From IMG/VR virus record IMGVR_UViG_3300024259_000012: a stretch of DNA of 64,000 bases. One strand, written 5' to 3'. Shown in pieces: positions 2,629 to 60,058 of the stretch. The notes below the pieces were generated by a model. That model was not told where the DNA came from and made no database searches. It saw nothing but the letters and a program-made list of their open reading frames with translations. Every line of letters begins with the position of its first letter. The stretch's first letter is position 1. The position numbers and the translations under genes are program-made. Source of the DNA: a virus.

Positions 2629-3341
2629 GTTGTGGTGGCTCCCCATTGGTTACCAAATTCGTAATTAAACATTTCTATATCTTTAGCGAATCGGGTTTCA
2701 ACAATGTGTCGTCCCTCATTGCTATACATTTCATGGTATGAATCTATTTTCTGAAAATACCCATCATGCGTTCTAATGTTGCTTCTCATTTGTGGCAACT
2801 CCGGCAATTCAAACATAGGCAGTCCCAGCCCCTCAAATAACTCAGCACAATTGGCTTCCAAATTTTCAAAGTGAACAATATAGTCAACCATTAGCTTGCC
2901 ATCATCGCCTGTAATCCAATCCGCACATGGACTTAAAATTCTGCGATTTGTGTGAGTCAATCCATCAATCGTTCGCTCTTCATAATCCGGTGAAATGTCG
3001 TGTGTAAATGCGTCTCTCAACCAATCATCAAATGATGCCTTCACATACGATAAGCTTTTTGGATTGCACACGTTCTTTCTGTACTGAGACAGCATTCTGT
3101 CCCATGGATTACGGACGATTGCAAATTTAATATAATCTTCCCAAGTTTCTCCGAGTGCCAACTTATACTCGTGAGCATCCCAATGTTGAGAATGTGGGAA
3201 TTTGATATCAGGATGACCGAATCCTTCGGTTGCCGCATACTTGAAACCATATGGCTCCAATGCTTGATTTACCGAATTTCCACCGGTCTTATTAATGTGT
3301 ACAAACACAAATTTGATTGGTGCGTTTTCATTAGCTATCAT
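2625..3341 (-). CDS. Sulfotransferase family 2-like protein
   Basis: FVHINKTGGNS (PAPS-binding) and VRNPWDRMLSQY motifs; ends at TGA in an ATGA overlap (only 2 more residues to TAA if read through). Confidence 0.8.
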   Translation of the reverse strand: MIANENAPIKFVFVHINKTGGNSVNQALEPYGFKYAATEGFGHPDIKFPHSQHWDAHEYKLALGETWEDYIKFAIVRNPWDRMLSQYRKNVCNPKSLSYVKASFDDWLRDAFTHDISPDYEERTIDGLTHTNRRILSPCADWITGDDGKLMVDYIVHFENLEANCAELFEGLGLPMFELPELPQMRSNIRTHDGYFQKIDSYHEMYSNEGRHIVETRFAKDIEMFNYEFGNQWGATTT

Positions 3342-27817: not shown

Positions 27818-29196
27818 TATTCAAATCCACCCGTTTTCTCCTCATCAACAACAAGCGTTTGATATTTCTTTGACAATTCTCTACGCTTGAATTCTTCTCG
27901 GTCATCCATGCGACCCTGTTGCTTTTGACCGTTATGTGACAGCTCCTCATACATCTCAAAGATGCCCGAGTCGGTATTCATCTTCATTGGTAGTGTTATT
28001 CCGTCCCGACCAAAGCGATTTTTGATTATGTGACACCTTCCAGTGTCCGCAATCTTATCTTCAACTTTACGACTGATTGACATTACAAAATCTGCGGTCA
28101 TCACCTTTGAATAATCTTCGGCGATTTTCTCTGCACCAATTATGTCCTCTTCCAATGAACTCCTTGAGGACTGTGAAGCTGTCCAAACTGGAACTCCAAG
28201 TTCTCCGGCCATTCCACGTAAATCTTCATAAATACGTCGTAATTGAAATCTTAAATCTTTTGCTCCGGATGTGTCTCTGAGCAAATCAGCATAGTCCACG
28301 ACAATCAAATCGGGCTGTATTTGCTGTAATTCCATTTGCTTGATATGCGCCATCAGTGTAGTCACTCCGGCACCACGCTGTGGATAATATTTAACAGTCA
28401 TGTTACCGGCCAAACCACTGAGTGCCTTTGCAACATCTTCTTTGTGATATTTAATATTCGCCGTTGGGACGTGACTAAAAATAGTATCGAACCGTGTACC
28501 CACATAATGCTCATTCAATTCCAACGTATAATAAACTACCTTCAATCCGGCTCTAATCCCTGCGGCGGCGATTGCTTGAAGTATCCACGACTTACCAATA
28601 CCTGCGGGTGCAACCACAACCCCAAGTTCTCCGGCGGCCAGCCCACCGTCCATCAATTCTGAAAGTGCATTCCATGGTGTCGCTATTGTATCTCTTACAT
28701 TTTTTGTCAATCTTGCTTCCAATCCTGTTATATAATCATGTCCCAAATCTCTCGGGGCACCCGCCTTCATGGCTTCATCAATCAAACCTTTGATTGCGTC
28801 GTATTCTCCTGATTCCAACAAATCTACCGAATCAATAATTGCAGTTTTTAACACCTGATTTTTACAGAATTCAAGTATCTTTTCCTGCACAAATTCCAAG
28901 TCGGTTGCTTCCAACTGAGACCACGCCGCTTTCAGTTTCTCTATAACTGATACCTGTAAGATATCATTCTCAATATCATCGACCTGAATCTTTAATACGT
29001 CCAATGTTGGAATGTGCTTATACTTGAAAAAGTATTCTGAAATGTGCTCGACCAACCATTTGTTGCCGTCGCTGTCAAACATATCAGGATTGAGAATATC
29101 ACCTATTTGTTGAATAAAAGATGTGTCCTTCAGCAGTGATGTTACAACTTTGGTTTGGAATGAATTTCCAAATCTGCTTAGAGTTTCCTCTGACAT
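27817..29196 (-). CDS. Replicative DnaB/gp41-like helicase
   Basis: APAGIGKS, YTLEL, VVDYADLL, VWTASQ, IKNRFG. Confidence 0.92.
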   Translation of the reverse strand: MSEETLSRFGNSFQTKVVTSLLKDTSFIQQIGDILNPDMFDSDGNKWLVEHISEYFFKYKHIPTLDVLKIQVDDIENDILQVSVIEKLKAAWSQLEATDLEFVQEKILEFCKNQVLKTAIIDSVDLLESGEYDAIKGLIDEAMKAGAPRDLGHDYITGLEARLTKNVRDTIATPWNALSELMDGGLAAGELGVVVAPAGIGKSWILQAIAAAGIRAGLKVVYYTLELNEHYVGTRFDTIFSHVPTANIKYHKEDVAKALSGLAGNMTVKYYPQRGAGVTTLMAHIKQMELQQIQPDLIVVDYADLLRDTSGAKDLRFQLRRIYEDLRGMAGELGVPVWTASQSSRSSLEEDIIGAEKIAEDYSKVMTADFVMSISRKVEDKIADTGRCHIIKNRFGRDGITLPMKMNTDSGIFEMYEELSHNGQKQQGRMDDREEFKRRELSKKYQTLVVDEEKTGGFE

Positions 29197-29200
29197 ACCA

Positions 29201-29812
29201 TTACCTATTTTTTACGTTGCACATGGTGGTTGCTTTTTGTCGCTCACACTCAAATACAAATCGCCAAATTCGTTTTACCTTCTGCACATCAACCAACTTA
29301 ATCAAATACCAGTTCCTAAGTGCCATATCGGTTAGCACGCCGGTAACATCACCTATAGTTGGGCGGGATGACCGCCAAAAATTTATGAAGTGTTGCTCCA
29401 TAATTCCATTCAAACAGTTGACCCCGACCACAGGAAATGTAAATACTAAACCGGCTTTGGGCTTCATCATTTCAAAGACAACAGGAAAAAATAGGTCTGG
29501 ATACCCATATGAATCAATATCAATAAAATCATATTTTTTTCGCTCTCCACGCAATTTGTAAATTGCATCGAAACTGCTCCCAAATTCTTCCTTGGTCATC
29601 GGCGTAACCTTACCATGCTCTTGATAATATTTTGTTAAATTTCCCTGCCCCGCAAAGACTTCCAAAATGTTGCCATGTATCAAATCTAAGTGATTATCTA
29701 ACTGCGCCATCTTTTCATCTGGGTGGTGGTACTCATCCTCGTTTCCCGCTTGCTTAGCTCGGGTTTCCTTGTGTGTCTCTTTAGTGTGCCCTACCATCGG
29801 TATCCTCTTCAA
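29201..29812 (-). CDS. Class I SAM-dependent methyltransferase-like protein
   Basis: ILEVFAGQG motif I; YDFIDIDSYGYP. Confidence 0.65.
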   Translation of the reverse strand: MKRIPMVGHTKETHKETRAKQAGNEDEYHHPDEKMAQLDNHLDLIHGNILEVFAGQGNLTKYYQEHGKVTPMTKEEFGSSFDAIYKLRGERKKYDFIDIDSYGYPDLFFPVVFEMMKPKAGLVFTFPVVGVNCLNGIMEQHFINFWRSSRPTIGDVTGVLTDMALRNWYLIKLVDVQKVKRIWRFVFECERQKATTMCNVKNR

Positions 29813-32070: not shown

Positions 32071-33115
32071 TATGCTCTTTCGCAAATTTGTCCAACCCAA
32101 TAAAACACATGGTTAGTCACGTTTCCAAATTTGGCAATGCTTGATGGATTTGGTCTTCAAGTACCATCTTCTCAAATGCAAATTTATTCAGCGTTGGTAT
32201 GTCACCCTTGACCAAGCCTCTCAGTGTAGATTTGGCGTGCGAGCTTATGTCAACATCATGCAATTGCATCAATTTATAATTGAGACCAAGCACATCCTTG
32301 CTGTTCAATATGTTCTCATGTACAGCCAACGAGCCGGTCTCAGCCGCTTCAAATAAATCATTCACCGTAAATACTGCAGGTTCAACAATTTCAGGAAACC
32401 TCTTAACCAGCGTTTTCAGTCCGACGCCTTTGACGCCAGGAATATTATCAGATTTGTCACCCTCAAGAATTCTATACATCAAAAAATTGTGTGGTGGAAT
32501 TTCATAATCCCGTTGCACAGCAAGTGGATTGTATAAAACCTTTTTGGTTGGAGACCACACGGAAATCCGGTCATTTACAAGTTGTAAGAAATCCTTGTCC
32601 GTGCTCATTATAACTATATTACTTTCGGTCAGCAACTGCTTGGAAATATAAGCCATTGAATCATCGGCTTCTATATTTTCAATCGTCACAATTGTCATTG
32701 GAAGATGTTTGAGATATTCCAATGCTCGCTGAATCTGCATGTACATGGACTGTTTTTCATCCTCAACAGAACTGAATTCATCCGACCTATTTACTTTTGA
32801 TGCAATCTTGCGATTTGCTTTATATTCGGGAAATAGTTTCTTGCGCCGCTTTGACCCGCCCTTACCATCAAATGTGATAATGACACGAGTTGGTTGTATG
32901 GTTTTTATTGCATACCCAACCGAGCGTAAAAATCCCGTGATGCCACCCACATGAACCCCATTTACATTGGTAGTTGGGGTCACCGCAAAAGCACGGATAA
33001 ATGTGTTTAGACCATCTATTATTAAAACCTTGCTGTCAGTTTCAAGGCTGTCAGCGTTTTCATGCTCATCTTTTAACTGAGTCATGATATTATTAAAAAT
33101 CTTTCTATCAATCAT
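32063..33115 (-). CDS. 5'-3' exonuclease / RNase H-like flap nuclease, 1 TGA near C-terminus
   Basis: IIDG, FDGKGG, YKANR, EADD, STDKD, GDKSDNIPGV; NLET*LTMCF TGA at 32117, next stop TAG 32063. Confidence 0.9.
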
Positions 33116-33264: not shown

Positions 33265-34356
33265 TTATTCATCAACGATTTCAATATCCTCTTCATCATG
33301 GACTTCGGCATCGCTTTTGTATTCCATTATTAAAGCACCACATATCAAATCATATATGTACTCTTCAAGACCTTCATTCTCTGCAAGAGCTTCTTTAAAT
33401 TTCGCAGGGGTGAATTTAATCACCTTATCGTTGAACTCAACAACATACGAATTTTTCTCTTTCTTACACAATTTGTAGTCTTTTAGCACCACAAGCCAAC
33501 TCGCATAATCATCTATACCAGAATCAAAATACATGTGGAACTCCGCTTTTCTTAACGGTGGACCCAATCTGTTTTTTGTGATTTCACACTTGGTTTTCAT
33601 ACCAACGATTTCTTCACTTTTCTTAATTCTTCCAAGATTTGAAAGACGGATGCGAACCGATGCGTGGAATGGCAATGCTTTACCACCCGATGTTGTATAT
33701 TTATCACCGAACATTGCACCTAATTTGTCACGCAATTGATTAGTAAAAACTATTGCAATTTTTTCTTTGCTGATTAAATTGGTAATTTTTCTCATAGCCT
33801 TAGACATGATAATTGCTTTTGCCGTAGCCCAGCCTTCCTTATCAAAATCTTGCTCCATTTCTACCTTTGTGGATGCGCCCGCCACGCTATCAACTAAAAT
33901 AGCAACAAGCCTGTCGCTATCACCTTCACGAACCTTGGCAATAATGTCTTCAATTGTTTCAAAAACATCTTCCATAGTTTCCGCTGGGACATACACCATC
34001 TCTTGTGTATTAACACCAATTGCATTTAAAAATTGTCGGCTAACCGCAGATTCAGTATCAATGTATACTGCGATTCCACCTTTTTTCTGACACTCTGCCA
34101 GAATGTGTGCGCCAACCAAACTTTTACCGGACGCTTCAAGGCCATTAATTTCACATATTCTACCAACTGGTATTCCACCATGTGGCATATTTGCAATGCG
34201 TAAATCTAATATACTTGAGCCGGTTGAAATTCAATCGGAAATATCAGCGGGATTTTCATCATCAAGAAAATGTGCAACCTTTAGTCCGCCACCTGAATTC
34301 AAGGAATCTGCAATTGAATTAACAAGCACATCTTCCCTATCTATTGTATCTGTCAT
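33265..34356 (-). CDS. RecA/UvsX-like recombinase, 1 in-frame TGA
   Basis: Start MTDTIDRE at 34356 after GGAG; ISD*ISTGS TGA at 34231-34233; GLEASGKS, DSVA, NQLR, SGGKAL. Confidence 0.92.
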
Positions 34357-34377
34357 ATTTTTCTCCATCATGTAATT

Positions 34378-34399
34378 GGGGCGAAGTTGCCTCCGCCCC
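34378..34399. other. GC-rich hairpin between SSB and recombinase genes
   Basis: ggggcg...cgcccc inverted repeat; no clear U-tract on the coding strand. Confidence 0.5.
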
Positions 34400-34416
34400 T
34401 GTTATTACTTTACCGT

Positions 34417-35196
34417 TTATGCTGTTGCCTTGGCCTTGTTGAACAGGTCATCGAAATCAGCGGCGGTTGCAGACTGGGATGTAACCTCAGCCTGTTGTGG
34501 TGATGGAGTGTCGGTTACTTCAGTATCTTCTTCTTCATCCGTTGGATTCAGATATTGGACTAAAGCATCCTTCAAGTCATCATATGTTAATTCCTGATAG
34601 ACTTCCCTAATATCCTTTTGGTTATTAAGTAGTGCATCCAACTGAGCTTTGTTCTCAGTCAATGGTGTCTGATTAGGTTTAACACGGATTGTTGTTTTTG
34701 GAAAGTTTGCGCCGGTTTCTTCCTTTGGAATGAATTTCACCGTGATGTCACGACCGTTTAACGGGTCTGAAATATCACCATAATCTTCATCAAGAAAGAA
34801 TTCCATTAGCTCAGTATTAACTAACTTTCCAAAGCCCCAAAACTTAACACCTTGAGCTTCTTCACCACGAACAACTACAGGTAGAAATGTACGTGTTTTG
34901 GCCTCAAGTTTACGAGCCATTTGATAAGAATCCTTATCTCCGTTTGCTCTTAGTTTAATTGCGAATTCTTCGATTGGGTCAGGACGACCGAATGAAAGGG
35001 GTGACAAGTATGTTTTTCCACCAATGTCATAGTGGAATTGCATTTCAATAAATGGATTATCCGGTACGTGCTTATATGGTACTACACGAATGACCGTTTC
35101 ACCATTAGTTGGTTTTCACAGGCTTGTGGTTTTGTTTGACTCGCTGTTTAATTGTGTTAGTTTTTTACGAAGTGCATCAAGATTGATTGCTCCCAT
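34417..35196 (-). CDS. Single-stranded DNA-binding protein (gp32-like), 1 in-frame TGA
   Basis: MGAINLDALRKKL...TSL*KPTNGETVIRVVPY; TGA at 35116-35118; KFWGFGK, YGDISDP..GRDI, acidic tail DFDDLF. Confidence 0.88.
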
Positions 35197-35346
35197 GGGT
35201 GTTCTCCTCTTTTGTTATTTGTCATTTGTCTTTTGTCGATGGCCATTAGTTGTCTTGCAACCTTTTCCATACATTAATATATAGCATATATATTCGCCAA
35301 ATGCACGTTTATTTTGGGTTTTTTTGAATTATTTTTGAATTATTTT

Positions 35347-35565
35347 TTAGTAAATCTGGGATAGGATGCTTTCATAAACAAAGTCAGCGTCCTCGTTAAC
35401 CCAATCAAGCTCCTGCTCAGTTAGGTCACGTCCGTCTATACTCGCCTGTGAAATGAACGCATCACAATAATCTGGGGCGTCTTTGGAATTGATATCTTCT
35501 ACATAAACATCTTCTAATTTTGATAAGTCTACCACGAACCATGTTCTCCTATAATTACACCACAT
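35347..35565 (-). CDS. Hypothetical acidic protein
   Basis: DAPDYCDAFIS...LTEQELD; own sigma70-like promoter upstream; start may be GTG at 35535. Confidence 0.6.
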   Translation of the reverse strand: MWCNYRRTWFVVDLSKLEDVYVEDINSKDAPDYCDAFISQASIDGRDLTEQELDWVNEDADFVYESILSQIY

Positions 35566-35589
35566 ATGTTGTCATTTCCCTCACACCCT

Positions 35590-35618
35590 ATAATACAACA
35601 TTTTTCTGCGATATGCAA
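35590..35618 (-). promoter_or_regulatory. Sigma70-like promoter TTGCAT-17-TATTAT
   Basis: Same hexamers and spacing as 41207-41235; A-rich upstream tract. Confidence 0.65.
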
Positions 35619-35637
35619 GAACTATTTTGAATTATTT

Positions 35638-35847
35638 TTATACAATCCATTCTTCATCTACTCGTGTTTTGCCACATTTAACGCATGTGTAAGTAACCGC
35701 AAATCCACGCTTCCTTACATACGTCCCAAACAGCGACACATAGCCGTACGAACGTTCCAATGAACGGGAGTCAGTTTTCTCATAGATGTGTGAATAGCAC
35801 CTATTTTTGAACCAATTTAGTCCCAACATGATTTCGTCCATTCCCAT
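35638..35847 (-). CDS. Small hypothetical protein
   Basis: C-x-x-H...CVKCG. Confidence 0.45.
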   Translation of the reverse strand: MGMDEIMLGLNWFKNRCYSHIYEKTDSRSLERSYGYVSLFGTYVRKRGFAVTYTCVKCGKTRVDEEWIV

Positions 35848-36161
35848 TGACCATCTTCACGGAGTTGAATTCGCACGTCACCTTCGGAGTAATCCTTCTG
35901 ACCTTCAAAATATGCATATTCCATCGCTTTGCGAACGCTTGCTTTGATGGTTGTTGAATTTGAGGCATCTACTTCTATGGCCGATGACTCGCTGATAATA
36001 TCATCAGTTACTATAATTGTAGTTACCGGTGCCGTAGACGTGAGCGTACCATTAATGATTCCAATATGGTCGTGCGACCCATCACATCCAGCACTCTGCG
36101 CAGTTATCGCCGATGTGAACCCTATAAAGCGTGCTATCAGGCTCGTCCCATTCATAACCAT
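35817..36161 (-). CDS. Hypothetical protein (start uncertain)
   Basis: C-terminal AMEYAYFEGQKD...GDVRI...WTKSCWD looks protein-like. Confidence 0.45.
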   Translation of the reverse strand: MVMNGTSLIARFIGFTSAITAQSAGCDGSHDHIGIINGTLTSTAPVTTIIVTDDIISESSAIEVDASNSTTIKASVRKAMEYAYFEGQKDYSEGDVRIQLREDGQWEWTKSCWD

Positions 36162-36270
36162 TGTGCTTATTGATGTGATGTCCTGGCTCTATTTCTTCTC
36201 GGATTTTCTTGTCAACTCTCGCTTTATGAAAGTCCGACAAGTCCCTATAATCGGTCATTGTCATTGTGCA
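36082..36270 (-). CDS. Small hypothetical protein ending at or reading through TGA
   Basis: MTMTDYRDL...CAECWM; next TAA is 10 codons after the TGA. Confidence 0.35.
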   Translation of the reverse strand, partial: CTMTMTDYRDLSDFHKARVDKKIREEIEPGHHINKHNGYEWDEPDSTLYRVHIGDNCAECWM

Positions 36271-36517
36271 CTCCATTTTTAGGCTTCTCAAGCAACTGCT
36301 TCACAACATCAACAATTGCCAATAGTTCATCTATTTCCTCAAACTTCAAAACTTGGTCGCCCTCATCATTCAGTTGAGTGAGCTTAATAATTTCACCGCC
36401 GCCCTCATCATCCAATGCGACCTCAGTTACGAGGTCGCCGAATATTGGACTTGTTTCAGACATTGGGAACACATTAATTTGTATCACCTTTGATTTATAT
36501 TTTTTAGACATCTTCAA
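36245..36517 (-). CDS. Hypothetical protein
   Basis: VALDDEGGGEIIKLTQ. Confidence 0.55.
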   Translation of the reverse strand: MKMSKKYKSKVIQINVFPMSETSPIFGDLVTEVALDDEGGGEIIKLTQLNDEGDQVLKFEEIDELLAIVDVVKQLLEKPKNGVHNDNDRL

Positions 36518-36992
36518 CCTTCGTTAAAGCAACACCATCTGGGTGCTCATGAGAAAGCTTCGCAAGCTTGCCCACACGGGTGCTAAGTCTAATCACCATT
36601 CGCATGATGTATAGTCCTGCCCAAACTGCTCCGATGAGTAAGAATAGCGGCCATATCAAGAATACGATAATCCAACTCACTCCGCCGCCAAGGCCAACCA
36701 ACATCAAACCAAGAGCGTCCCATGTATATTGTGTAGGTGCCCCTGAGTCTGAATAATTTCCATAGGGTTCAACGCCCATTTGCAGTCCGTATTCATCCTT
36801 GAAAAACCACTTGAACGGGGTGGCGTAAATTGAAACCTGCTTCCACCAATTTGGTGCAAAGGCACGGTCACCATCATAAAGATATTGTTTCAGTTTTGAC
36901 AGCATTGGCAACACTATGGTCAAAAATGCTAAAACTGTGGTGGACACTATTATACCATACATACCAAGTGTATCATAAATTTCAAATAACAT
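36504..36992 (-). CDS. Membrane protein, paralog of 36994..37467
   Basis: About 3 hydrophobic segments; shared motifs KLxQYxxDG, PxWW, WPL, HxHP. Confidence 0.7.
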   Translation of the reverse strand: MLFEIYDTLGMYGIIVSTTVLAFLTIVLPMLSKLKQYLYDGDRAFAPNWWKQVSIYATPFKWFFKDEYGLQMGVEPYGNYSDSGAPTQYTWDALGLMLVGLGGGVSWIIVFLIWPLFLLIGAVWAGLYIMRMVIRLSTRVGKLAKLSHEHPDGVALTKVEDV

Positions 36993-36993
36993 A

Positions 36994-37467
36994 TTAATCT
37001 CCTACCATTGTGTGTTCAACATCCTTTGGATGCTTGTGTGCAAATTGTGCGAGCTTGACAACTTTCTTGGTGAGTCTGGTGACTGCACGTAAAAGGTACA
37101 GGGCACCCCATAATGACAAGCATACAATCACAAGTGGCCATAAAAGAATTACAGCCGCCCAAGAAATCGCATTTAACATACTTACAAACATTTCCTCACC
37201 GTCCCAGCTTGCGGGCGATGGCGTGTCCGTATCATCATAATCATACTTTGGACTGACCCCATAATACTTATCGTCCTCTATCCACTTATACGGAAATACA
37301 AATCGTGAGAGGGGAACCCACCATTTTGGAACGTGGGCATAGGTGCCATCATTGATATACTGTACAAGCTTGGTGGCTATTGGCACCAACATTGTCATGA
37401 ATATCATTGCTGACCCCGCTACAATAGCGGCGTATTCAGCTACGGCTTTGTAAATTTCTTGGTACAT
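36994..37467 (-). CDS. Membrane protein, paralog of 36504..36992
   Basis: Same motifs; AAGGAG SD. Confidence 0.7.
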   Translation of the reverse strand: MYQEIYKAVAEYAAIVAGSAMIFMTMLVPIATKLVQYINDGTYAHVPKWWVPLSRFVFPYKWIEDDKYYGVSPKYDYDDTDTPSPASWDGEEMFVSMLNAISWAAVILLWPLVIVCLSLWGALYLLRAVTRLTKKVVKLAQFAHKHPKDVEHTMVGD

Positions 37468-37598
37468 GTTGTTTTCTCCTTTATTTGTTTTAGCAAGTCG
37501 CTTGCCTCTGTCAACCCATAGTTGAAAAGCATTTCTTCAAGCGGTGCTATCAGTTTTTTCAATTTCCGAACTTGATGTGGGCTTAGTCCGCTTTTCAT
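37440..37598 (-). CDS. Small hypothetical protein (52 aa)
   Basis: MKSGLSPHQVRKLKKL... fills the gap. Confidence 0.4.
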   Translation of the reverse strand: MKSGLSPHQVRKLKKLIAPLEEMLFNYGLTEASDLLKQIKEKTTCTKKFTKP

Positions 37599-37609
37599 TT
37601 CATACCACG

Positions 37610-38560
37610 TTAGAATTGGCCGTACTCCACTTGGAAAGTTGGTATTCCAACTACCTCTCTCCAGTGTTCAATCATTTGGTCACGGTCATCCAAAATGAAC
37701 AACACATTGTATTTGCCCTTGATTTCAGCTTCATACAATTCATCCTTGATAATTGAATCTCTCCTTGAATCGTTTGGTGCTCTCATAAATAAGTTGTCAC
37801 CATACTTTACAGTAAAGGCGGTCTTATCTCTGAACCACCGAAGTGTTTCGTCACGGGCGTTTCCATCACGACCTGATAAGAATATGATTTTAACTCGTTC
37901 ATGCTGTTCATCCCATGGTAACATATCATTGTGAAATTGATATGTTTCTAATATATGTTGAACTGGGGCATTCACATCATCCTCGTACACAGCAGACCAA
38001 TCAAATGGACTTCTACCAGTCATCTTAGCGATGGTTCCGTCAATGTCAACCAAGATACATTTTGGCAATGACTCATCTTGGTCAATGTAAAATGACTCAT
38101 TCTTTGTTGGTGGATAGTATGTCTCAGGAACCAACAAAAGCTTTCCTGGCTTGATATACTTGTTATAGAACGTATCTACCACATCCGGTGGAACTGCATC
38201 TTCACGGTTGTCATTCCGCCTGTGAGCCTCTTTCAAGGTCACTTCAACCATTGTTTCAACTACCTTCACATCACCAACTTTTTGAGCGATGGCGTGCCAT
38301 TCGTTGACAGTCTTTTGACGCAAGTTTGTATCATCGGTTACAACATTCAACCCCTTTTTCAAAGCGTCAAACGCCATAGCTTGGGTTGCCTTCGTGATTA
38401 TGGTCTCATTTTTCTGAGTGAAAACTGACATGTTCATCATTTTTCTAAACTCATCACGATTGATTCTAACCCAAGATTTTGGGTTTTTAGCAACAAATTT
38501 ACGTGCTTCTGTTGATTTTCCGGATGCCGGAATTCCTCTATATATTCTAAGTGTCTGCAT
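37610..38560 (-). CDS. pseT: Polynucleotide 5'-kinase/3'-phosphatase (T4 PseT-like)
   Basis: GIPASGKST P-loop, RINRD, DIDGT, SGR, DDRDQ. Confidence 0.9.
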   Translation of the reverse strand: MQTLRIYRGIPASGKSTEARKFVAKNPKSWVRINRDEFRKMMNMSVFTQKNETIITKATQAMAFDALKKGLNVVTDDTNLRQKTVNEWHAIAQKVGDVKVVETMVEVTLKEAHRRNDNREDAVPPDVVDTFYNKYIKPGKLLLVPETYYPPTKNESFYIDQDESLPKCILVDIDGTIAKMTGRSPFDWSAVYEDDVNAPVQHILETYQFHNDMLPWDEQHERVKIIFLSGRDGNARDETLRWFRDKTAFTVKYGDNLFMRAPNDSRRDSIIKDELYEAEIKGKYNVLFILDDRDQMIEHWREVVGIPTFQVEYGQF

Positions 38561-38783
38561 TTATAATTCCCGCCTCCAAATCCTTAATATATTCAACCGC
38601 CAAGTCAATGGCTTTCATGGCACACCCCTGTCTTGACTGTGTGCCGTCTTTATGTGTCCGCAACTCACCGTTGCCATCCATTGGGTCGTATTCAAATTCT
38701 GCGAGTGGAATCTTTGAATCTTCACTCTCAACTATAATAGTGTCGTTAGCTTCAAAATCCCACCAATATTTACTTGACATCAT
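38547..38783 (-). CDS. Hypothetical protein
   Basis: AAGGAG SD; ATGA overlap with upstream gene. Confidence 0.55.
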   Translation of the reverse strand: MMSSKYWWDFEANDTIIVESEDSKIPLAEFEYDPMDGNGELRTHKDGTQSRQGCAMKAIDLAVEYIKDLEAGIINADT

Positions 38784-39313
38784 GCTATCTCCTTGTATTC
38801 AAACAATTCGTCCAGCATTTTCCACGCTTTGGCAAACTGATTTCCACGCTTCAGTGCAAACCTGAATACCGGATATTCTCTACGATACTGCGAATATAGT
38901 CGGTGACCCTCAGCTTTTGAATTACTTCCATTTGCATAGCGGTCACACATTTTCAAAAAGGTTCCCAATCGGCTATCACGGGTCTTTGGCAGGGTCTTGA
39001 ACATGCGTTCAATTCTGTTCTTCCCAGATTCATCTGTGACTGAGAAAATAACATCGGCTTCGTCTGTACCAAACTTAGATTCAACCTTGTTGTATGACAT
39101 ACCAGTGTCTTCAATCAAATCGTGACCAAATACAGCCCGAATTAAAATCTCATAATCGTGCTTCGAAAGACTGTCATCCATGAATAAATCAATAATTTCA
39201 CGAACCATATCCAAATGAACACTGTATGATTTTCCAGTACCATATGTCTGTTTAACTTGGTCGTGCTTACTCTTAGCAAACGCTCTCAATTCTTTGATGT
39301 CATTTATTATCAT
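38780..39313 (-). CDS. HD-domain hydrolase (SpoT/Mesh1-like)
   Basis: H...Y...Y..HL, HDLIEDT, SVTDE, KMCDRYAN; ends at TGA in an ATGA overlap. Confidence 0.8.
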   Translation of the reverse strand: MIINDIKELRAFAKSKHDQVKQTYGTGKSYSVHLDMVREIIDLFMDDSLSKHDYEILIRAVFGHDLIEDTGMSYNKVESKFGTDEADVIFSVTDESGKNRIERMFKTLPKTRDSRLGTFLKMCDRYANGSNSKAEGHRLYSQYRREYPVFRFALKRGNQFAKAWKMLDELFEYKEIA

Positions 39314-40175
39314 AAAGCACATCCAATAACTTTTTGTAAAATGCCAATGGGTTGGCAGTTGTTGCTAAGCCAGATACCTCTCCGGCTCCTGTCTCTAATA
39401 TAAACGGTTTTTTGTCTCCTGCAAGTGCAAAATCAATTGTCATGAATGTTGAGTCAAGTTCATTTGCGATGCGTAATAAAATATTTGGAACAATCGGGTC
39501 AAAGTGAACACCCTCTTCATTGTTCGCATCAATGGAAATTATTTGACCATTGAGAATGAACGCACGAAATTCCTGCTTGATACCATCTATTTCATTTATA
39601 GGGATGTATTCCTTTGAAACGATGCCTTTATTGAAGCCGTACATTTTCCGACTTTCAATCATATTTTCAATTGTACGTCTTGCCGCCTTGGCATCCATTG
39701 GTTTTTTCACATGCATGGCGTTTTCAACACCCTTTGCAGACTTGACCCAATCCTTGACAATATACGGCTTGTAATCAAGATGTATTGCTATGGACTGCGT
39801 GTGAAATTCCTCTCCAACAATTATGTCAGTGTTTGGGGAATATTGGTGCAGGGTGTCGGAATATTTGTATGCGTATGGAAAATAATGCACAGTTACATAT
39901 TGGTCAGTTCGTTGCAACGTCGTAAATCCAACCCCTCTAAGACCATTTTCAAATCTATTGTATTGCTCTTCGGTCAGCATCCAACCCCGATACAAAATTG
40001 TAGTAGCCTGTGCTCTAACCCTGAAAGGATTTACCCACTCTTCGTCGTTTAGCAGTGCATCATAATCAAATAATATAACCGCTTCACCGAGCAATTGTAG
40101 GGCTTCCCACTCAGCGTGGAAATCGTAATCCGGCTGTCGCTTGTTTATCGGGTTCCATGGCATTGCAAAAATCAT
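39300..40175 (-). CDS. ATP-grasp (R2K-like) domain protein
   Basis: LYRGWML, IVKDWVKSAK, EFRAF, TIDFA...ILETGAGEVSG; ends at TGA. Confidence 0.75.
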   Translation of the reverse strand: MIFAMPWNPINKRQPDYDFHAEWEALQLLGEAVILFDYDALLNDEEWVNPFRVRAQATTILYRGWMLTEEQYNRFENGLRGVGFTTLQRTDQYVTVHYFPYAYKYSDTLHQYSPNTDIIVGEEFHTQSIAIHLDYKPYIVKDWVKSAKGVENAMHVKKPMDAKAARRTIENMIESRKMYGFNKGIVSKEYIPINEIDGIKQEFRAFILNGQIISIDANNEEGVHFDPIVPNILLRIANELDSTFMTIDFALAGDKKPFILETGAGEVSGLATTANPLAFYKKLLDVLYDNK

Positions 40176-40179
40176 AATG

Positions 40180-40399
40180 TTACCAATCTATTTTATTTGA
40201 TTGTATTGAGGCAATTCCCCATATACATGTGACTGCGATATCTTCCAATTCCGCAATAATTTTCTCATGGTCATTTGCATGAATTTCATCTTTGAATTCA
40301 CGAACTTCCTCATCTAAAACTCCCGAGATTTCATGAATGGTCTACAGCTACAATCGCATATTCTCGGATTGTTATTTCCTCGTGTTTACATTCACCCAT
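40180..40399 (-). pseudogene. Frame-disrupted MazG-like (NTP pyrophosphatase) remnant
   Basis: HEISGVLDEEVREFKDE...IIAELEDIAV lies in a frame with no start codon, +1 relative to the ATG at 40399. Confidence 0.5.
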
Positions 40400-40641
40400 T
40401 ATCTGCTCCCGTCCTTAAATGCTTCTTTTGTCTTGTCTGAAAATTTCTTGATGTCTTCCATTTCCATGTCAAATTTACGCCAAACGTATTGTTCTATGGC
40501 CCCGTACAAATCTGCCAATTCACATAATTGAAGTACCAAATCGTCCTGCTCCCAAGCATCTTCAAGCTCAACAAACTCTTCCTTGATTTTTGAAAAGTGT
40601 CCGTACTTGCCTCTTGGTATGTCTTTCTTGTGGTAGCCCAT
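40399..40641 (-). CDS. MazG-like/HisE-like nucleotide pyrophosphatase
   Basis: KIKEEFVELEDA...ELADLYGA. Confidence 0.7.
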   Translation of the reverse strand: MGYHKKDIPRGKYGHFSKIKEEFVELEDAWEQDDLVLQLCELADLYGAIEQYVWRKFDMEMEDIKKFSDKTKEAFKDGSR

Positions 40642-41201
40642 TATTTATCCCGTTTTGTGTTTTTGTTCATTATAACCCTTGACAGCCTTGGCTCCGCACA
40701 TCCCGTGCCGTAAATCCAAGTCAAAAATTCTGATTGTCGGATTCCATAGCTCCCAAGTTCATAGCCATTGTATTTGATATCATACCCATCAGCGGTTACG
40801 AATCTCTCAAATTTGTTTGGCGTCTTGAGGTATTTCGCAAAGAAATCTTCTGCCGCAATCAACACTTGCATAAGTGCATCCCGAGACACATCATCGGTTT
40901 TTATCAATTCATTTTTTAAGAAATATTTACCATGCATGGCGTCTCGTGGGTCTCTCCTAAAACATGGGGTGACCGTTTGAAATTGCCCAAGTGGAAGAAA
41001 GCCCTTGAGATACAATTCAAGAAATGACTGTTCACCCGATGCAACTAAATTTTTTCCGGTTGATACTTGGTATGGCAAAGTGTGTTCTGGCCTCGTGATA
41101 CTATCTATGTATTCAGAGACCGTCCACGGGGCTTCTATGCGCTTAAAACCGCATTCCTCGTAGTATGTTATGGACTCTGCTATGTATTTATAATTTATCA
41201 T
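40641..41201 (-). CDS. Minimal class II aminoacyl-tRNA synthetase-like catalytic domain
   Basis: GFKRIEAPW (motif 1-like), LVASGEQ, TPCFRRD...YFLKNEL (motif 2), ELGSYG, GTGCAEPRL (motif 3). Confidence 0.7.
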   Translation of the reverse strand: MINYKYIAESITYYEECGFKRIEAPWTVSEYIDSITRPEHTLPYQVSTGKNLVASGEQSFLELYLKGFLPLGQFQTVTPCFRRDPRDAMHGKYFLKNELIKTDDVSRDALMQVLIAAEDFFAKYLKTPNKFERFVTADGYDIKYNGYELGSYGIRQSEFLTWIYGTGCAEPRLSRVIMNKNTKRDK

Positions 41202-41206
41202 GCTGT

Positions 41207-41235
41207 ATAATACAAAAAAATCCCTGCAGATGCAA
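41207..41235 (-). promoter_or_regulatory. Sigma70-like promoter TTGCAT-17-TATTAT
   Basis: -10 ends 5 nt before the ATG at 41201. Confidence 0.65.
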
Positions 41236-41269
41236 GGATTATTTTATTAGGTTGTGTTGTGTGATGTTA

Positions 41270-41683
41270 TTAAATGTTGTTCTCCCATTCAATCGTATTG
41301 ATGATAGTGTGAATCTTGGTGTGAATGTGCTTGAATCCATCTTTGGTGGTGAGCAACAAACTGTTCTGAAATTCACTTCAATCAATCGGAAATGACTTGT
41401 CCAAGACGCCATTGTTTTTTCTCCGTATAACTTCGTTTAGGCTATTGATGGTGTATAGCGTGTTGGTCTGCTTTTTCCTGTGCAACGATATTGTGTCGCT
41501 ATTGGTTATGAAATCATCACCTGCAAATTCAACATTGTATGTGCATACCAACTGAGTAGGTTCGGCCACATTATAGAATACATATATTTTATTAAATACA
41601 ATATTATGATATCCAACTATTACATCAATCGTATCATTCAATTGTTCTACTTTAGAAAACGTCGCCAACAAACTTGTACGCAT
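41270..41683 (-). CDS. Phage hypothetical protein, 1 in-frame TGA
   Basis: LHRKKQTNTLYTINSLN...FPID*SEFQNSLLL; TGA at 41378; TAA at 41270. Confidence 0.7.
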
Positions 41684-42162
41684 TAGTCAGTTACCTCTAT
41701 ATCATCTACTGATACCCATTCAGAACCAGGCTTCTCTTCTTTAAGAATGCCGGTTGAAGTTTCTGAATCATCCGAGCCTGTGATTTGATAATCAGGAAAC
41801 GGGCTATCGGCAACAACAAAAGTGGAACCTGTGATTTGGATTTCCGTTCCATCAATTAGTGCATCAGATTCTACAAGACCCGCTTCACCCAATTCTATGG
41901 ATTCTTCAAGCGTAGTTCCAATTCCAACAAAAAGGTTTTCACCAAGAATTGGTATTGGTGGTGTGGCAGGAATCGGTTCCACACGGTCACCCTTCAAATT
42001 TGTAATAAATTCATTTATCGCTTGAACCGGCCATTCAAATTCAACCAATACTTCTCGCAATAACATTTGATGTCCGAAATTTTTTGGGTCGGGCTTTCCA
42101 TCAGATACTTTAAACGCTCACTCTGTTAATATGTTCTCCAACATTCCTTCATAATCAGTCAT
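41683..42162 (-). CDS. Hypothetical acidic protein, 1 in-frame TGA
   Basis: MTDYEGMLENILTE*AFKVSDGKPDP; AGGAG SD; TGA at 42118-42120. Confidence 0.7.
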
Positions 42163-53591: not shown

Positions 53592-54282
53592 GGTATAACT
53601 CCTTTACCGTTTGTTTTAATTTATTGTAATCAAACGAATCCTGCTCAACCCTCAGAAACGTACACTGTAGGTGTTCAGTTATTTCGTTTTGTCTCATTGC
53701 ATCTTTTTCTTTTTGATAGCTGTGATACGCTTCATCTCATTCTATTACCAAATTTAATTCTGGTACATAAAAATCAACCCAATATCCCAACTGTTTAATA
53801 TAAAACTCGCCGCCATTTTCGGCATGTTGTCCATTTAATGATAATTCTGAATTGAGCCTGTCAAAGGCAATGCACGATGTTTCATTATAGTTCGGAAAAT
53901 TTTGCCCATATTTTCGCTGAATGTTATTGATTTGCGCTAATCTCAATTTGCGCTTGTGCTCATCTGATTTAGGGATTCCTTTGAATCTGGCACTTGTTTC
54001 CTGCTTGTCCTTGGCCGACATTTTCCTACCGAATCCTGGGTGGTCTTTTCCAAATTTTCCATATAATCCGCTCTTTTCACCGACATTTGTACCGATACTA
54101 TTTTTACTCATAAGAGCTAAAGTTTCTTTTGTGTGGGTTTTACCATACATCGGATTCCGGTTACCAGATATTGCGCACGGTCTACATGCCGTATTTTTTG
54201 CTATGGCACGAGCCAACAAATATTTATTAGAATACGATAGCTGAATATTACAATTTGGACAGTTCCGAGAAAACTTACTCAT
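53578..54282 (-). CDS. Free-standing homing-endonuclease-like protein, 1 in-frame TGA
   Basis: CPNC..CRPC, NPMYGKTHTKET (NUMOD3-like), HAENGGEF, YWVDFY, VIE*DEAYH TGA at 53737. Confidence 0.78.
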
Positions 54283-56341: not shown

Positions 56342-56659
56342 TTATAAGTAGTTTGGGCCGGTCCAAGCAAACCAATTTTGCGACTCAGCATAGATGGAAC
56401 CACGAACGTGTTTGGCCGGTGCTCGATATGAAGCGGCCTTGAAAACATCACCCTCTTTATAAGGGAGTCCTTTAAATTCACCATCGGCCTTGGCAATGAA
56501 GCCCCAAACTGAACGGTCAGAAATCAGCTTATCAAATTTACGACCAGCGGATACTGTAATTTCCTGTGGCTCTTGATATGTAAATCCTGCGGTGAAGCGT
56601 GAATAATCCACTCGAATTCCCTCTATCAATCGCTCTATTGCTTCCTCATACTTTGACAT
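56342..56659 (-). CDS. Phage hypothetical protein (early-type island)
   Basis: GRKFDKL...SVWGFI...GDVFKAASYRAPAKHVRGSI. Confidence 0.7.
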   Translation of the reverse strand: MSKYEEAIERLIEGIRVDYSRFTAGFTYQEPQEITVSAGRKFDKLISDRSVWGFIAKADGEFKGLPYKEGDVFKAASYRAPAKHVRGSIYAESQNWFAWTGPNYL

Positions 56660-56885
56660 TTTTAAATCCTTTATTTTAGTTAGCTTTCTCATTACGTTAG
56701 TAAGTTAATACCACACAATGAGAAAGCAAGGACTTTTTAATTAATAATGAAATGCTCTGTGCTCAGCAAGACGTAAATGTTGTATTGCCATATATATCCG
56801 AGCATAATTTTGTCTTAATTCCATTTTCAAACTTGGGAATTTTTCCCTCACCAACTCATATAATTCCATTAAATCAATGTTCATT

Positions 56886-57083
56886 TTACTCCTCCGAAAC
56901 GGTTATTGGCTCCACCCAAAATTTTGGTTTTGAATTGCGGTCGGCGGATACTATCCGTGCCTGTCGCTCAAGAGTATCCTTCCGTGAATTTGCAATGTCT
57001 CTTGTAGCGTAAGATGTTCCAGTTGAATAGGTGTCCTTGTCACCTTTCGTGTTCTGTCTTAGGATGATAAATACTTTTCTCAT
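56886..57083 (-). CDS. Small hypothetical protein
   Basis: AAGGA SD; sigma70-like promoter upstream. Confidence 0.5.
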   Translation of the reverse strand: MRKVFIILRQNTKGDKDTYSTGTSYATRDIANSRKDTLERQARIVSADRNSKPKFWVEPITVSEE

Positions 57084-57112
57084 GGGATTCCTTTCAATTT
57101 TTGGTTGAAATC

Positions 57113-57141
57113 AACTTACAAAAAAATTCATCCGAAGTCAA
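57113..57141 (-). promoter_or_regulatory. Sigma70-like promoter TTGACT-17-TAAGTT
   Basis: Hexamer match and spacing. Confidence 0.5.
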
Positions 57142-57180
57142 GAGCTCTCTGCTATATGTAATGAATTTTTACCCTTGTCA

Positions 57181-57615
57181 TCAATCAACCCTCTTTGCAC
57201 ATTCGGGTCCAATACCTGAAATGATTGATTCTGGCACGGTTAATTTCCGCCCACATCTACCGCATGTACCTGAATGAAATATTGCTATCAGGGATGACAA
57301 CCGCTGAGTAATGAGTTTGCTAAAAATGTATTGAAATACTTTTTCTGACTGTGCGGATGCCGCTATTTTGCTCTTTTTACCATGATAGTAATCTTTTGAA
57401 TTGAAAATTGTTCCCAAATATTGATATGAATCGGTGCCGGACATTACTGACACAAAATGAACAGTCGCATCCTTTTCCTTGGGTTTGCGGACTTTGAATG
57501 TAAACCTGTTTCTGGATTCAGTATTTTTAACGGTGAAGGTTGAATTTCCCGCTAAAATATACTTTAGTGCATCGGTTTGGGTTAGTGCGGTCATATTGTT
57601 GGTCTCCTCTTCCAT
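57181..57615 (-). CDS. Hypothetical protein with DUF6011-like C-terminal zinc finger
   Basis: CGRCGRKLTVPESIISGIGPECA; followed by tandem TGA TGA. Confidence 0.7.
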   Translation of the reverse strand: MEEETNNMTALTQTDALKYILAGNSTFTVKNTESRNRFTFKVRKPKEKDATVHFVSVMSGTDSYQYLGTIFNSKDYYHGKKSKIAASAQSEKVFQYIFSKLITQRLSSLIAIFHSGTCGRCGRKLTVPESIISGIGPECAKRVD

Positions 57616-57620
57616 GTCAC

Positions 57621-57649
57621 AATATAAGACTACACATATCCCAGTGCAA
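57621..57649 (-). promoter_or_regulatory. Sigma70-like promoter TTGCAC-17-TATATT
   Basis: Hexamer match and spacing, just downstream of the sheath terminator. Confidence 0.6.
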
Positions 57650-57709: not shown

Positions 57710-60058
57710 TTATGCTGAGAAAGTAGCTCCTGTTGGCATGACTGTGAAATCAAGCACTATGAATTCCGCTGTGCGGGTAGGCTGAATCCAAATCTGACCA
57801 ATAAGCTTGTTACGGTCAATTACCTCTGGGGTATTGTTACTCTCGTCCATGATAACTCGGAAAGCGGTCAAACCACTATTCTGTTGCACTGACTCAAGAT
57901 ATGGATTAACCATATTCAAGAAGCGTGTACGTGTCACAGAATCGTTGCCTTCAAATACCAAGTAACGACTTGAAGATGCAATGTATTTCTTCAACTTAAT
58001 TAAAAGTCTACGAACATTGATTCTATCAAGAGCCGATGGCAATGATTGAAGTGTCTTCTGACCCCAAGCTACTGTTCCTTGACCTGGGAAGGTTGCGATT
58101 GGATTTACACGGTTCTCGTATAAGTCGTCACGTTCTTCATGTGTCAAGCGTGTCTTAGGTTCAAGCACGGTTGTAAGACCTCCACGATTCAAGCCTGCGG
58201 GTGCAAACCATTCGTGAGAAACCTTATCGGTGTATGCAATAACACCACCCATTACAACTGAAGGTGGAACCCAGAGTGGCAATGCTGTGTTTCTATCCAC
58301 AATCTTAACCCATGGATAGTATGTTCCTGCATAGTTAGTGTCCAATGATGCGATATTATTTGTTGCGGTTGAAACACTATCGTCAATATCCGATGAATCC
58401 ATTGGATAGAATGTGTCTCCACGAGCCTCAATTTTCGTAATAGCATGATTGGTTACCGAGCTATGGAATTTGTGAAGTACCCCAGGAATCAACATCAAAT
58501 TGATATCAAATTCGTCTGGATTACTTACGGCATTAATAGCACGTTTGTATGCCACTGAACCACTTGAAAGTGAGTTTGCACAATCAAATCCTTGAGTGTT
58601 AGTTGTTGCGATATTCGCACCAGTCAATTTTGGATTTGCGGGATTGTCTCCGTCAAAACCACCTTGAAGTGGTACTGAGAATTTACGCTGTTTGATATGC
58701 GAGTTAGCTAATGTGACTGCCTGTGAAGCGGATGCATATGGTGTACCCAAGGTACTTGCATCAGCCGTTCCGGTCATATCTTCTAAACTCATTGATACGT
58801 TACTACCGGTTCCTGCCGACGTTGGAATTGCTCCCAAATATTGCCTGTTATCAGCATTGGTAAAATCATAGCCAAAGTAGTAGTTTGAATTGAACGAACT
58901 ATTATTGTCTGTCTGTGATGTCACAAATGATGCTGAAGGTACAGCGGTTGTCGTTGGGGCAGTGTTGCTAATTGCCGCAAATCCCATTGGTGAAACGATT
59001 TTAGGAATACTTGCGTCCGCAATGTCGCCAAAATCACTAACATAAATATGATTTGACAGGTTAGGCCAATCACCATTATACGTGAGGTTTCCGTTGGAAT
59101 CTGTTGTTACATATCTGTCACCGATGACACGTGCAAAATAATTTACACTTGTTGGGTCAAAGGTAAGACTATCCCACGATTCAACAATTACTTCATCTGA
59201 TTGCTTCCATGAGTTAGGTTTTAACTTACGAACCTGCAATGTAAATGAACCATAATCTGTACCAGTTATTGTTCCAGCGGCCTTTACATCAGAAATAACA
59301 ACATTATATTTGTCATTGATGTCAGTACCATGTGAGCGAGTTTTAACCTTGAACAGGTTATACCTTGCACCATTGATTAACTGTGATTGAATGTATGGGG
59401 TATATGCGTTTGAATAATCTATTCCGGAGAAATCCAATGATGCGGATGCGATAGACGCACTTGCATATTGGTCCAGTCCAGTTGAAGATTGAAATGTTTT
59501 ATAGTTCTTATACAGGTAGACTTCTACTGTATTCAATCCTGATTTTTGAACTTGTGGACTATCACTAAATACGTTGGTAATATAGTTTGCACTACCTGTA
59601 TTGAATGAAATTGTGTATGCCCGTGATGTTGCACCGGCTACGGTTAGTGCGGCGGATGCCCAGCCACCTGTAATGCTACTACCTGTCAATGTTGCGGTTC
59701 CGTCGCTTCCACCTCGTGATGGTGCAAGAACTGCGGCTGTTTCCAAACCACGAGAGCTTGAAAGTTGAAGTGCCATATAGTCACTTGAGTAACCACCAAT
59801 TCCAAGAACCCTAACTACTGTTACTGTTCCTGCGCTTTGCAAATATTGCTCAACTGCATATGGTGTATAAAAGCGTGAATCCGTACTCCCGAACATATCT
59901 TCAAATTCAGGTCAAGACCTGATAATGGTTGGAACAAACGCTGGACCTTTAATGGTCGGCCCGATGATTGCGGCTCCAATCTCTGAAATACCTTGGGGAA
60001 GGAAAGACGCATCAGTTTCAGATGTAAAGACACCTGGTGAGACGATTCGTTCTGCCAT
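57710..60058 (-). CDS. Contractile tail sheath protein (gp18-like), 1 in-frame TGA
   Basis: MAERIVSPGVFTSETD...KGPAFVPTIIRS*PEFEDMFG (TGA at 59912-59914); YYPWV, WFAPAGLNRG, WGQKTL, DRINVRRL, PTRTAEFI. Confidence 0.95.

Follow-up and report, generated by a model that had tools for sequence, protein, structure and literature searches.

TGA as a sense codon and at natural gene ends in a seawater T4-like myovirus: a candidate case of code switching during infection

We analysed a 64,000-nucleotide (nt) stretch of viral DNA (IMG/VR virus record IMGVR_UViG_3300024259_000012), hereafter the window, which is part of a seawater T4-like myovirus. Alignment with related phages indicates that TGA is a tryptophan (Trp) codon in this lineage. 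We found that TGA is missing from the inside of every intact gene of a minus-strand operon (41201-35347) headed by a sigma70-like promoter, and that, as judged from homologues, it sits at the natural C-termini of three proteins: an R2K ATP-grasp protein and an HD-domain hydrolase, both encoded in this operon, and a DUF6011 protein encoded in a second island behind the tail sheath gene (Table 1). The reading that we favour, with a probability of roughly 0.6, is that translation would terminate at these TGAs early in infection and that the code would be switched while infection proceeds. The code of the host, the timing of the switch and actual termination at these codons are what we infer here from sequence comparison.

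All long open reading frames (ORFs) of the window lie on the minus strand. It encodes a T4-like gene set (PolB, a class II ribonucleotide reductase, helicases, SSB, UvsX and an RNase H-like exonuclease) together with tail sheath, tail tube and baseplate hub proteins, a PolA-like protein, a polynucleotide kinase-phosphatase (PNKP), the ATP-grasp protein and a sugar-modification cluster. Its closest cultured phages are Microcystis phage Mel-JY01 (44% identity in PolB and 46% in the sheath) and Flavobacterium phage immuto (51% in the C-terminal part of the sheath), and the hosts of these cultured relatives are cyanobacteria and Flavobacterium. DNA nearly identical to the window is present in many seawater metagenomes; compared with named phages, the DNA of positions 35000-42000 gave short PNKP matches only. 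Two relatives were used for comparison. The first, a syntenic 39-kb IMG/VR contig, spans window positions 27241-64000 at a DNA identity of 66-95%, mostly 68-82%. The second is a 162-kb metagenome contig reached through a homologue of the HD protein; 119 kb of it, all but the first 43 kb, were read as twelve overlapping, mutually consistent pieces. This relative is collinear with most of the window, and the window's aminotransferase gene has no counterpart in it.

The sense meaning of TGA is apparent from codon exchanges among the three phages. When the window is aligned with the 39-kb relative, TGG stands opposite eight window TGAs and 14 TGAs of the relative stand opposite a window TGG. In the comparison with the 162-kb relative, the corresponding figures are 5-6 and 29-32, and 12-21 columns have TGA in both phages; the residue opposite TGA was Trp in 29 and 5 columns and Gly in 1-2. 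Code 25 (TGA as Gly, known from phages of Gracilibacteria and Absconditabacteria) could be ruled out because Gly hardly ever stands opposite TGA. A selenocysteine codon or a lone programmed read-through site was likewise ruled out, as exchanges of TGA and TGG are spread over numerous sites and genes (no search for RNA elements was made). The RNase H-like exonuclease gene offers a positive control for real read-through. Its TGA at 32119, an apparent stop under code 11, is replaced by TGG in both relatives and the 17-amino-acid (aa) continuation behind it is conserved. In the sheath gene, the TGA at codon 49 aligns with Phe in relatives that lack an in-frame TGA in this gene.

Conserved sense TGAs are present in the genes for SSB, UvsX, the RNase H-like exonuclease and a helicase, and those for ribonucleotide reductase and a DnaB-like helicase carry sense TGAs in the 162-kb relative. 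The inference of a first-pass annotation of this DNA that early genes are read in code 11 is therefore not supported as it stands, since early genes in a broad sense include the first four of these and are not all compatible with that code. The share of TGA among Trp codons is about 14% in the window and about 26% in the 162-kb relative, and about one third of the genes carry it. In code-4 genomes, TGA makes up 80-90% of Trp codons (10.1101/2022.06.29.495998), and in-frame TGA is found in approximately 90% of the genes of phages matched to a recoded host, as compared with 26-71% in recoded phages of standard-code hosts (10.1101/2021.08.26.457843). The host-matched pattern, with TGA as the major Trp codon and present in nearly all genes, was seen neither in the window nor in the relative. 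The low share of TGA among Trp codons and among genes thus matches recoded phages of standard-code hosts and not phages that follow a recoded host.

Against this background, the operon stands out. After curation it comprises 14 intact genes and one decayed gene, and the intact genes contain 42 TGG and no in-frame TGA. The first-pass annotation had described this absence, and its TGG counts for the two membrane paralogues, PNKP and the ATP-grasp gene (Table 1) were reproduced. The counterpart operons of the two relatives have TGG/TGA counts of 48/0 and 38/0, the sole TGA-bearing exception being an inserted GIY-YIG homing endonuclease gene. Given about 14% TGA elsewhere in the window, the chance of 0/42 would be about 0.002 assuming independence; TGAs in fact cluster by gene. 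Among the Trp columns conserved between the window and the 162-kb relative, TGA occurs in 1/21 in the early operon versus 59/188 in the rest (P = 0.0095). A sigma70-like promoter is found at the head of the operon in both relatives too (TTGACT or TTGACA, spacer, TATATT), and this promoter-like sequence is what suggests early expression. Other TGA-free genes of the window encode PolB, ribonucleotide reductase and a 796-aa protein, and the major capsid protein gene of the relative has ten TGG and no TGA. With PolB, reductase and capsid also free of TGA, its avoidance is not exclusive to early operons.

The four sites at which TGA had been proposed as the first in-frame stop, namely 38780 (within an ATGA overlap), 39300, 36082 and the tandem pair at 57181, are all present in the sequence. 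Comparing the C-termini of these proteins with homologues was the check that the annotation had called for, and it came out in favour of TGA ends in three cases, in which homologues end at the TGA and, where a read-through tail could be compared, the tail has no counterpart. For the ATP-grasp protein, the Pfam match (R2K_3/R2K_2) is complete and ends at residue 283, and the orthologue in the 162-kb relative has a TAA stop three residues before the window TGA. The gene is absent from the 39-kb relative, and no close relatives of the window protein were found in IMG/VR. Three homologues of the HD protein (P0002, P0003 and P0004) end at most two residues from the TGA column. Moreover, the HD gene of the recoded 162-kb relative stops with TAG, and the remnant in the 39-kb relative ends in EYKEI-TAA. 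The Pfam match of the DUF6011 protein ends one residue before TGA TGA and, among the best 150 of 3840 homologues, many end within a few residues of query residue 141-144 according to the listed coordinates. Among orthologue pairs between the window and the 162-kb relative, an unaligned C-terminal tail led by TGA occurs in the ATP-grasp and HD proteins only. Altogether, TGA is placed by these alignments at the natural C-termini of the ATP-grasp, HD and DUF6011 proteins.

The site at 36082 is of another kind, a deletion junction. Here, the TGA arose by a deletion of about 75 nt between ATGTG repeats (window 35817-36258; L005 13017-13542 in the 162-kb relative), in which the tail of the 58-aa gene was lost. 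A fifth TGA end was found in the early operon of the 39-kb relative, where a 110-aa gene (29038-29370) ends with TGA-T in an ATGA overlap with a next gene led by a Shine-Dalgarno (SD) sequence; a further TGA and a TAG follow 6 and 7 codons on. The TGA-ended genes amount to 3/14 in the operon of the window, 1/19 in that of the 39-kb relative and 0/18 in that of the 162-kb relative. Among the stop-start junctions of the window, TAATG occurs 17 times and ATGA is confined to the HD gene and a possible case at 2627; ATGA junctions were judged by hand because the automatic count was swamped by off-frame ORFs. Contigs from independent seawater runs are identical to the window over 37700-40365 and 56507-57279 (0 differences), and a search of four runs for strain variants at the terminal TGAs returned the same letters throughout, with no TGG, TAA or TAG.

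The base that follows TGA differs between sense and terminal codons. Among the in-frame TGAs of the window under liberal gene calls (n = 46), the next base is A in 23, G in 12, C in 6 and T in 5, and among the 26 validated by orthologues it is A in 12, C in 6, G in 6 and T in 2; these counts are close to those on which the first-pass annotation had based the same contrast. If the three related genomes are counted as independent, the next base is T at 11/132 (8%) of the validated sense TGAs versus 84/446 (19%) of the TGG codons in the same genes (P = 0.003), and at 4/5 of the terminal TGAs (P = 0.0005 versus sense TGAs). After TAA and TAG stops, T is the next base in 40%. Selection on the next base is sensible only if a release factor competes for the codon, that is, in a host with release factor 2 (RF2). 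In E. coli, UGA followed by U reportedly favours release by RF2 and UGA followed by A read-through by tRNA-Trp (Poole 1995; Engelberg-Kulka 1981); our search of the literature on the bacterial UGA-N hierarchy gave eukaryotic data only.

The position of sense TGAs is skewed toward the 5' end of genes, with a median aligned codon of 47 for TGA versus 159 for TGG (P = 0.0008), and TGA takes the first Trp column in 11 of 15 genes, against an expected 6.3. This position suits a gate that would abort translation cheaply while suppression is off. We also observed that sense TGAs crowd into the first 50 codons or so (for instance at 59914, 35118, 34233, 31913 and 15385), and that several of them are TGA in all three phages.

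Our results are best accommodated by the following scheme. The host would be a standard-code bacterium that retains a release factor for UGA. Genes transcribed right after injection from sigma70-like promoters, in the operon and in the island behind the sheath gene, would be translated by the unmodified host; under such translation they must avoid internal TGA, and a TGA at a gene end terminates. A U as the next base may aid termination, as may the ATGA stop-start overlap in the case of the HD gene. An activity that decodes UGA would appear later, or would compete with the release factor throughout, and with decoding on, TGA would be read as Trp in replication, recombination and structural genes. 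Once suppression is on, four early proteins would gain tails of 4 to 16 residues at most. Indirect evidence favours a host that uses the standard code and has a release factor for UGA, namely the low share of TGA, the TGA-free promoter-led operon in three phages, the avoidance of T after sense TGAs and their 5' skew. The first-pass annotation had arrived at a standard-code host, code 11 for early genes and a later switch. The promoter-led operon, the natural ends and the codon context lend partial support to this proposal, which is weakened by several other observations.

First, all five terminal TGAs are followed by TAA or TAG within 2-16 codons, so that read-through would be harmless. Second, TGA ends are rare (see the operon counts above) and could reflect drift. 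Third, the early islands are mosaic, with a 94% identical HD remnant and no ATP-grasp gene in the 39-kb relative, and standard-code phages may have been the source of the TGA ends. Fourth, a possible TGA end at 2627, in a sulfotransferase-like gene, lies outside the early islands. Fifth, an excess of TGA near ORF ends was absent genome-wide, with even a depletion in the relative. Sixth, tRNAs were found neither in the window nor in the 39-kb relative, the 119 kb of the 162-kb relative or the contigs of five further relatives; Rfam at gathering thresholds gave nothing on 58 kb, and neither RF1 nor tryptophanyl-tRNA synthetase (TrpRS) was among the Pfam matches listed for the called genes of the stretches scanned for tRNAs. 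Finally, the next-base statistics treat three related genomes as independent.

The strongest alternative, which we regard as possible but rather unlikely, is that TGA means Trp at all times, through a code-4 host or through suppression from the start, and that the terminal TGAs are neutral accidents with harmless tails. Such accidents could stem from TAA-to-TGA changes, from the deletion junction or from import from standard-code phages. Several observations suit it: the TGA at 36082 was produced by deletion, genes have been gained and lost between relatives in the early islands, the operon of the 162-kb relative has no TGA-ended gene, TGA is not in excess near gene ends genome-wide, the sense TGA at 32119 is itself close to a gene end, and no suppressor tRNA that would point to a switch was found. 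The backup stops behind all five terminal TGAs fit as well. However, in 62% of genes a genuine stop is followed by another TAA or TAG no more than 16 codons on, which makes such backups expected by chance and uninformative either way; the caveat of the first-pass annotation, that a TAA or TAG stands within 4-16 codons of each site, thus weighs for neither side. Moreover, a constant Trp meaning leaves unexplained why the operon is TGA-free in three phages despite dozens of TGG/TGA swaps elsewhere, why T is avoided after sense TGA and present after terminal TGA, and why the share of TGA is low and skewed toward 5' ends. The tandem TGA TGA placed exactly at the C-terminus of the DUF6011 family is also unlikely as Trp-Trp. 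Free-living marine code-4 bacteria are not known, which we count against this alternative.

A second alternative, to which we give little credence, dispenses with a temporal switch. A Trp-inserting tRNA and RF2 would compete at every UGA throughout infection and local context would decide, with a following U and a position at the gene end favouring release, A, G or C favouring decoding, and high-output genes avoiding TGA. It accounts for the next-base split between sense and terminal TGAs, for sense TGA in replication genes that T4 expresses early, and for the lack of TGA in genes that are not early and are probably bulk or essential (major capsid protein of the relative, PolB and ribonucleotide reductase). 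On the other hand, the 5' skew and the first-Trp-is-TGA pattern resemble gating rather than tolerance, and a conserved promoter of host type stands at the head of the TGA-free operon. In large part this alternative overlaps with early termination followed by a code switch, and sequence alone does not separate the two. Assembly or sequencing errors, or pseudogenes, as the source of the apparent TGA ends and in-frame TGAs are very improbable, since one operon gene (40399-40193) is truly decayed but the letters over the sites are identical in independent seawater runs, and, in two relatives whose frames are otherwise intact, the in-frame TGAs are either kept or exchanged for TGG.

We also entertain, as an improbable extension of early termination with a code switch, that the two meanings of UGA within one infection would be set by time and next base without a canonical suppressor tRNA, the TGA-free early operon itself reprogramming the host tRNA-Trp, RF2 or ribosome. 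Candidate genes for such reprogramming would be those for a class II aminoacyl-tRNA synthetase-like (aaRS-like) protein, the R2K ATP-grasp protein, the SpoT-like HD hydrolase and PNKP, and an RNA ligase gene in the relative.

Table 1. Location of the genes, codons and promoter-like sites discussed in the text (window positions).
Feature	Position	Strand	Basis or comparison
Sigma70-like promoter TTGCAT-17-TATTAT, overlaps terminator hairpin	41207..41235	-	sequence motif
Class II aaRS-like protein, 186 aa, first gene of operon, 2 TGG, 0 TGA, TAA stop	40641..41201	-	
MazG-like gene, 80 aa, TAA stop in TAATG junction	40399..40641	-	
Decayed gene	40193..40399	-	about 44 nt missing vs intact 87-aa orthologue of 162-kb relative
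R2K ATP-grasp gene, 291 aa, 5 TGG, first in-frame stop TGA-C at 39302-39300	39300..40175	-	
ATP-grasp read-through tail HQRIESVC + TAA (8 further codons), overlaps start of HD gene	39273..39299	-	no counterpart in orthologue
HD-domain hydrolase, 177-180 aa, weak SpoT/RelA-hydrolase-like matches, ends TGA-T at 38782-38780	38780..39322	-	
HD read-through tail CQVNIGGILKLTTLL + TAG (15 further codons), inside next gene in another frame	38732..38779	-	
78-aa gene, AAGGAG-led ATG at 38783 overlaps HD TGA (ATGA)	38547..38783	-	
PNKP, 316 aa, 6 TGG, 0 TGA, TAA stop	37610..38560	-	
Two paralogous membrane-protein genes, 157 + 162 aa, 7 TGG each, 0 TGA, TAA stops	36504..37467	-	
58-aa gene ending CAECWM-TGA (TGA-T at 36084-36082)	36082..36258	-	TGA at ~75-nt deletion junction vs 162-kb relative
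Lipoprotein-like gene, own start and signal peptide lost in ~75-nt deletion; frame open back to ATG 36161	35817..36161	-	
Promoter-like site, second TTGCAT-17-TATTAT	35590..35618	-	sequence motif
72-aa gene, TAA stop, lower end of operon	35347..35565	-	
Promoter-like site TTGCAC-16-TTATAT, just past terminator of sheath gene	57622..57649	-	
DUF6011 gene, 144 aa, tandem TGA TGA at 57183-57178, then CAA GGG TAA	57178..57615	-	
Sense-TGA control: tail sheath codon 49	59912..59914	-	TGA in all three phages, within conserved N-terminus
Sense-TGA controls: SSB gene (35118) and UvsX gene (34233), conserved, early in gene	34231..35118	-	alignment
Read-through control: RNase H-like exonuclease TGA, apparent code-11 stop	32117..32119	-	TGG in both relatives

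Further features of the two islands are worth recording. The first ATG of the operon (41201) lies 5 nt past the -10 box and the ATG of the DUF6011 gene 6 nt past its own, both without SD, so each island may begin with a leaderless gene; at the same gene, the relatives have leaders that contain an SD. The aaRS-like protein has 1633 homologues of about 180 aa, mostly metagenomic, some of which match PF00152 and are named aspartyl/asparaginyl-tRNA synthetase by the Joint Genome Institute; no PDB match was obtained by sequence. With more than 1600 members in the family, we rejected this protein as a recoding-specific device. In the decayed gene, the loss of about 44 nt has broken the frame, so that its six frame-0 TGAs are out-of-frame letters; the N-terminal piece of 22 codons is no longer in the frame of the conserved C-terminal part. 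A +1 frameshift at TCA TGA A was rejected for the same gene, given the deletion of about 44 nt and a TGA that is out of frame in the conserved part.

Only the last 24 HD codons are kept in the 39-kb relative (L001 6001-6072 versus window 38786-38858), with 94% identical DNA, and the regions around this remnant are 66-76% identical, with two extra genes inserted after it; a 94% remnant amid such neighbours is a sign of recent recombination at the HD junction. The GIY-YIG homing endonuclease gene sits after PNKP in both relatives (L005 12084-12800; L001 7680 onward) and is missing from the window. This insert has six TGAs and one TGG within the otherwise TGA-free operon. The window has an HNH-like endonuclease gene of its own (54282-53578), with a TGA at 53739. 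Behind the 58-aa gene, the frame of the lipoprotein-like gene from ATG 36161 reads MVMNGTSLIARFIGFTSAITAQSAGC followed by DGSHDH, which resembles a new signal peptide and lipobox overprinted on the upstream gene. The sulfotransferase-like gene ends TTT-TGA-GCA-TAA (window 2619-2646, minus strand), and its TGA overlaps an in-frame ATG (2628) of the radical SAM gene that follows.

Other observations concern regulation and gene content. The motif TATAAATA occurs 16 times in the window versus 5 expected, and its nine plus-strand sites (including 60086, 60523, 54454, 52596, 30219, 22761, 17315 and 14133) read TATTTATA on the gene strand. Several of the latter lie about 20-40 nt upstream of gene starts, that of the sheath gene included, and may represent a phage promoter motif. 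The idea that TATAAATA serves the gene strand as a late promoter of the T4 type is unsupported, it being the reverse complement that stands upstream of several genes. In the 162-kb relative (L091 8426-8629 and neighbours; L093 16588-19262) we noticed ribosomal protein bS21 and a QueD/QueE/FolE set for 7-deazaguanine synthesis. The same stretches hold Cpn10, an Apyc1-like nuclease and a ribonucleotide reductase gene split by an inserted element.

A switch of code during infection was reportedly proposed for stop-codon-recoded phages by Ivanova and colleagues in 2014. Gut recoded phages (crAss-like, Lak, Jade, Agate and others) likewise show in-frame TGA aligned with Trp, partial recoding, some operons compatible with the standard code and TGA that is rare as a stop, and the common model holds that early genes are read in the host code and that recoded genes await suppression. 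Unlike them, the phage studied here is a T4-like myovirus from seawater, whose PolB and sheath share about 44-46% identity with those of Microcystis phage Mel-JY01. Its recoding extends to genes of replication and recombination, neither a suppressor tRNA nor RF1 or TrpRS has turned up so far, and TGA also stands at homologue-supported ends in an unrecoded operon. A concentration of recoding in genes for structure and lysis, with those for replication left in the standard code, was not what we saw; in some clades, recoding of replication genes is variable (Borges et al., 10.1101/2021.08.26.457843). The Mgcod paper (Pfennig, Lomsadze, Borodovsky; 10.1101/2022.06.29.495998) describes phage blocks of different codes, including "dual-coded" early blocks that yield the same proteins in both codes, and treats small C-terminal extensions as equivalent predictions. 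In our case too, an early block that is nearly identical under codes 11 and 4 adjoins blocks that require code 4. Unlike the Mgcod blocks, it involves one strand and small islands behind individual promoters instead of two genome halves, and comparative evidence bears on which reading fits the natural protein ends.

Mycoplasma and Spiroplasma and their phages also read TGA as Trp. There, it is the main Trp codon (80-90%) and never a stop, whereas here it makes up a minority of Trp codons, is missing from whole operons and occurs at natural gene ends. In certain ciliates, stop codons are reportedly sense codons as well and terminate in a position-dependent manner (Swart and colleagues, 2016). 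The likeness lies in the dual meaning of one codon by context. The ciliate system is eukaryotic, depends on eRF1 and on proximity to the 3' end of the mRNA, while the discriminators proposed here would be time of expression and next base; the resemblance is in logic only.

The code-switch model for recoded phages is thus known already (Ivanova 2014; Borges 2021; Pfennig 2022), and our data fit this model and are no proof of it. What is new is the lineage and habitat, the comparative placement of TGA at the natural ends of early genes, and the opposite next-base preferences of sense and terminal TGAs. Until now, it is mostly phages of the gut from which code switching has been inferred, and no experiment is known to have demonstrated the switch. 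TGA-to-Trp recoding now reaches abundant seawater T4-like myoviruses. In the present case, annotation with table 11 alone or table 4 alone gives wrong proteins. The four natural gene ends that carry the recoded codon, beside conserved sense TGAs early in essential genes, make unusually clean test sites. If termination at the early TGAs were demonstrated, this would be direct evidence of a codon that changes its meaning within a single infection.

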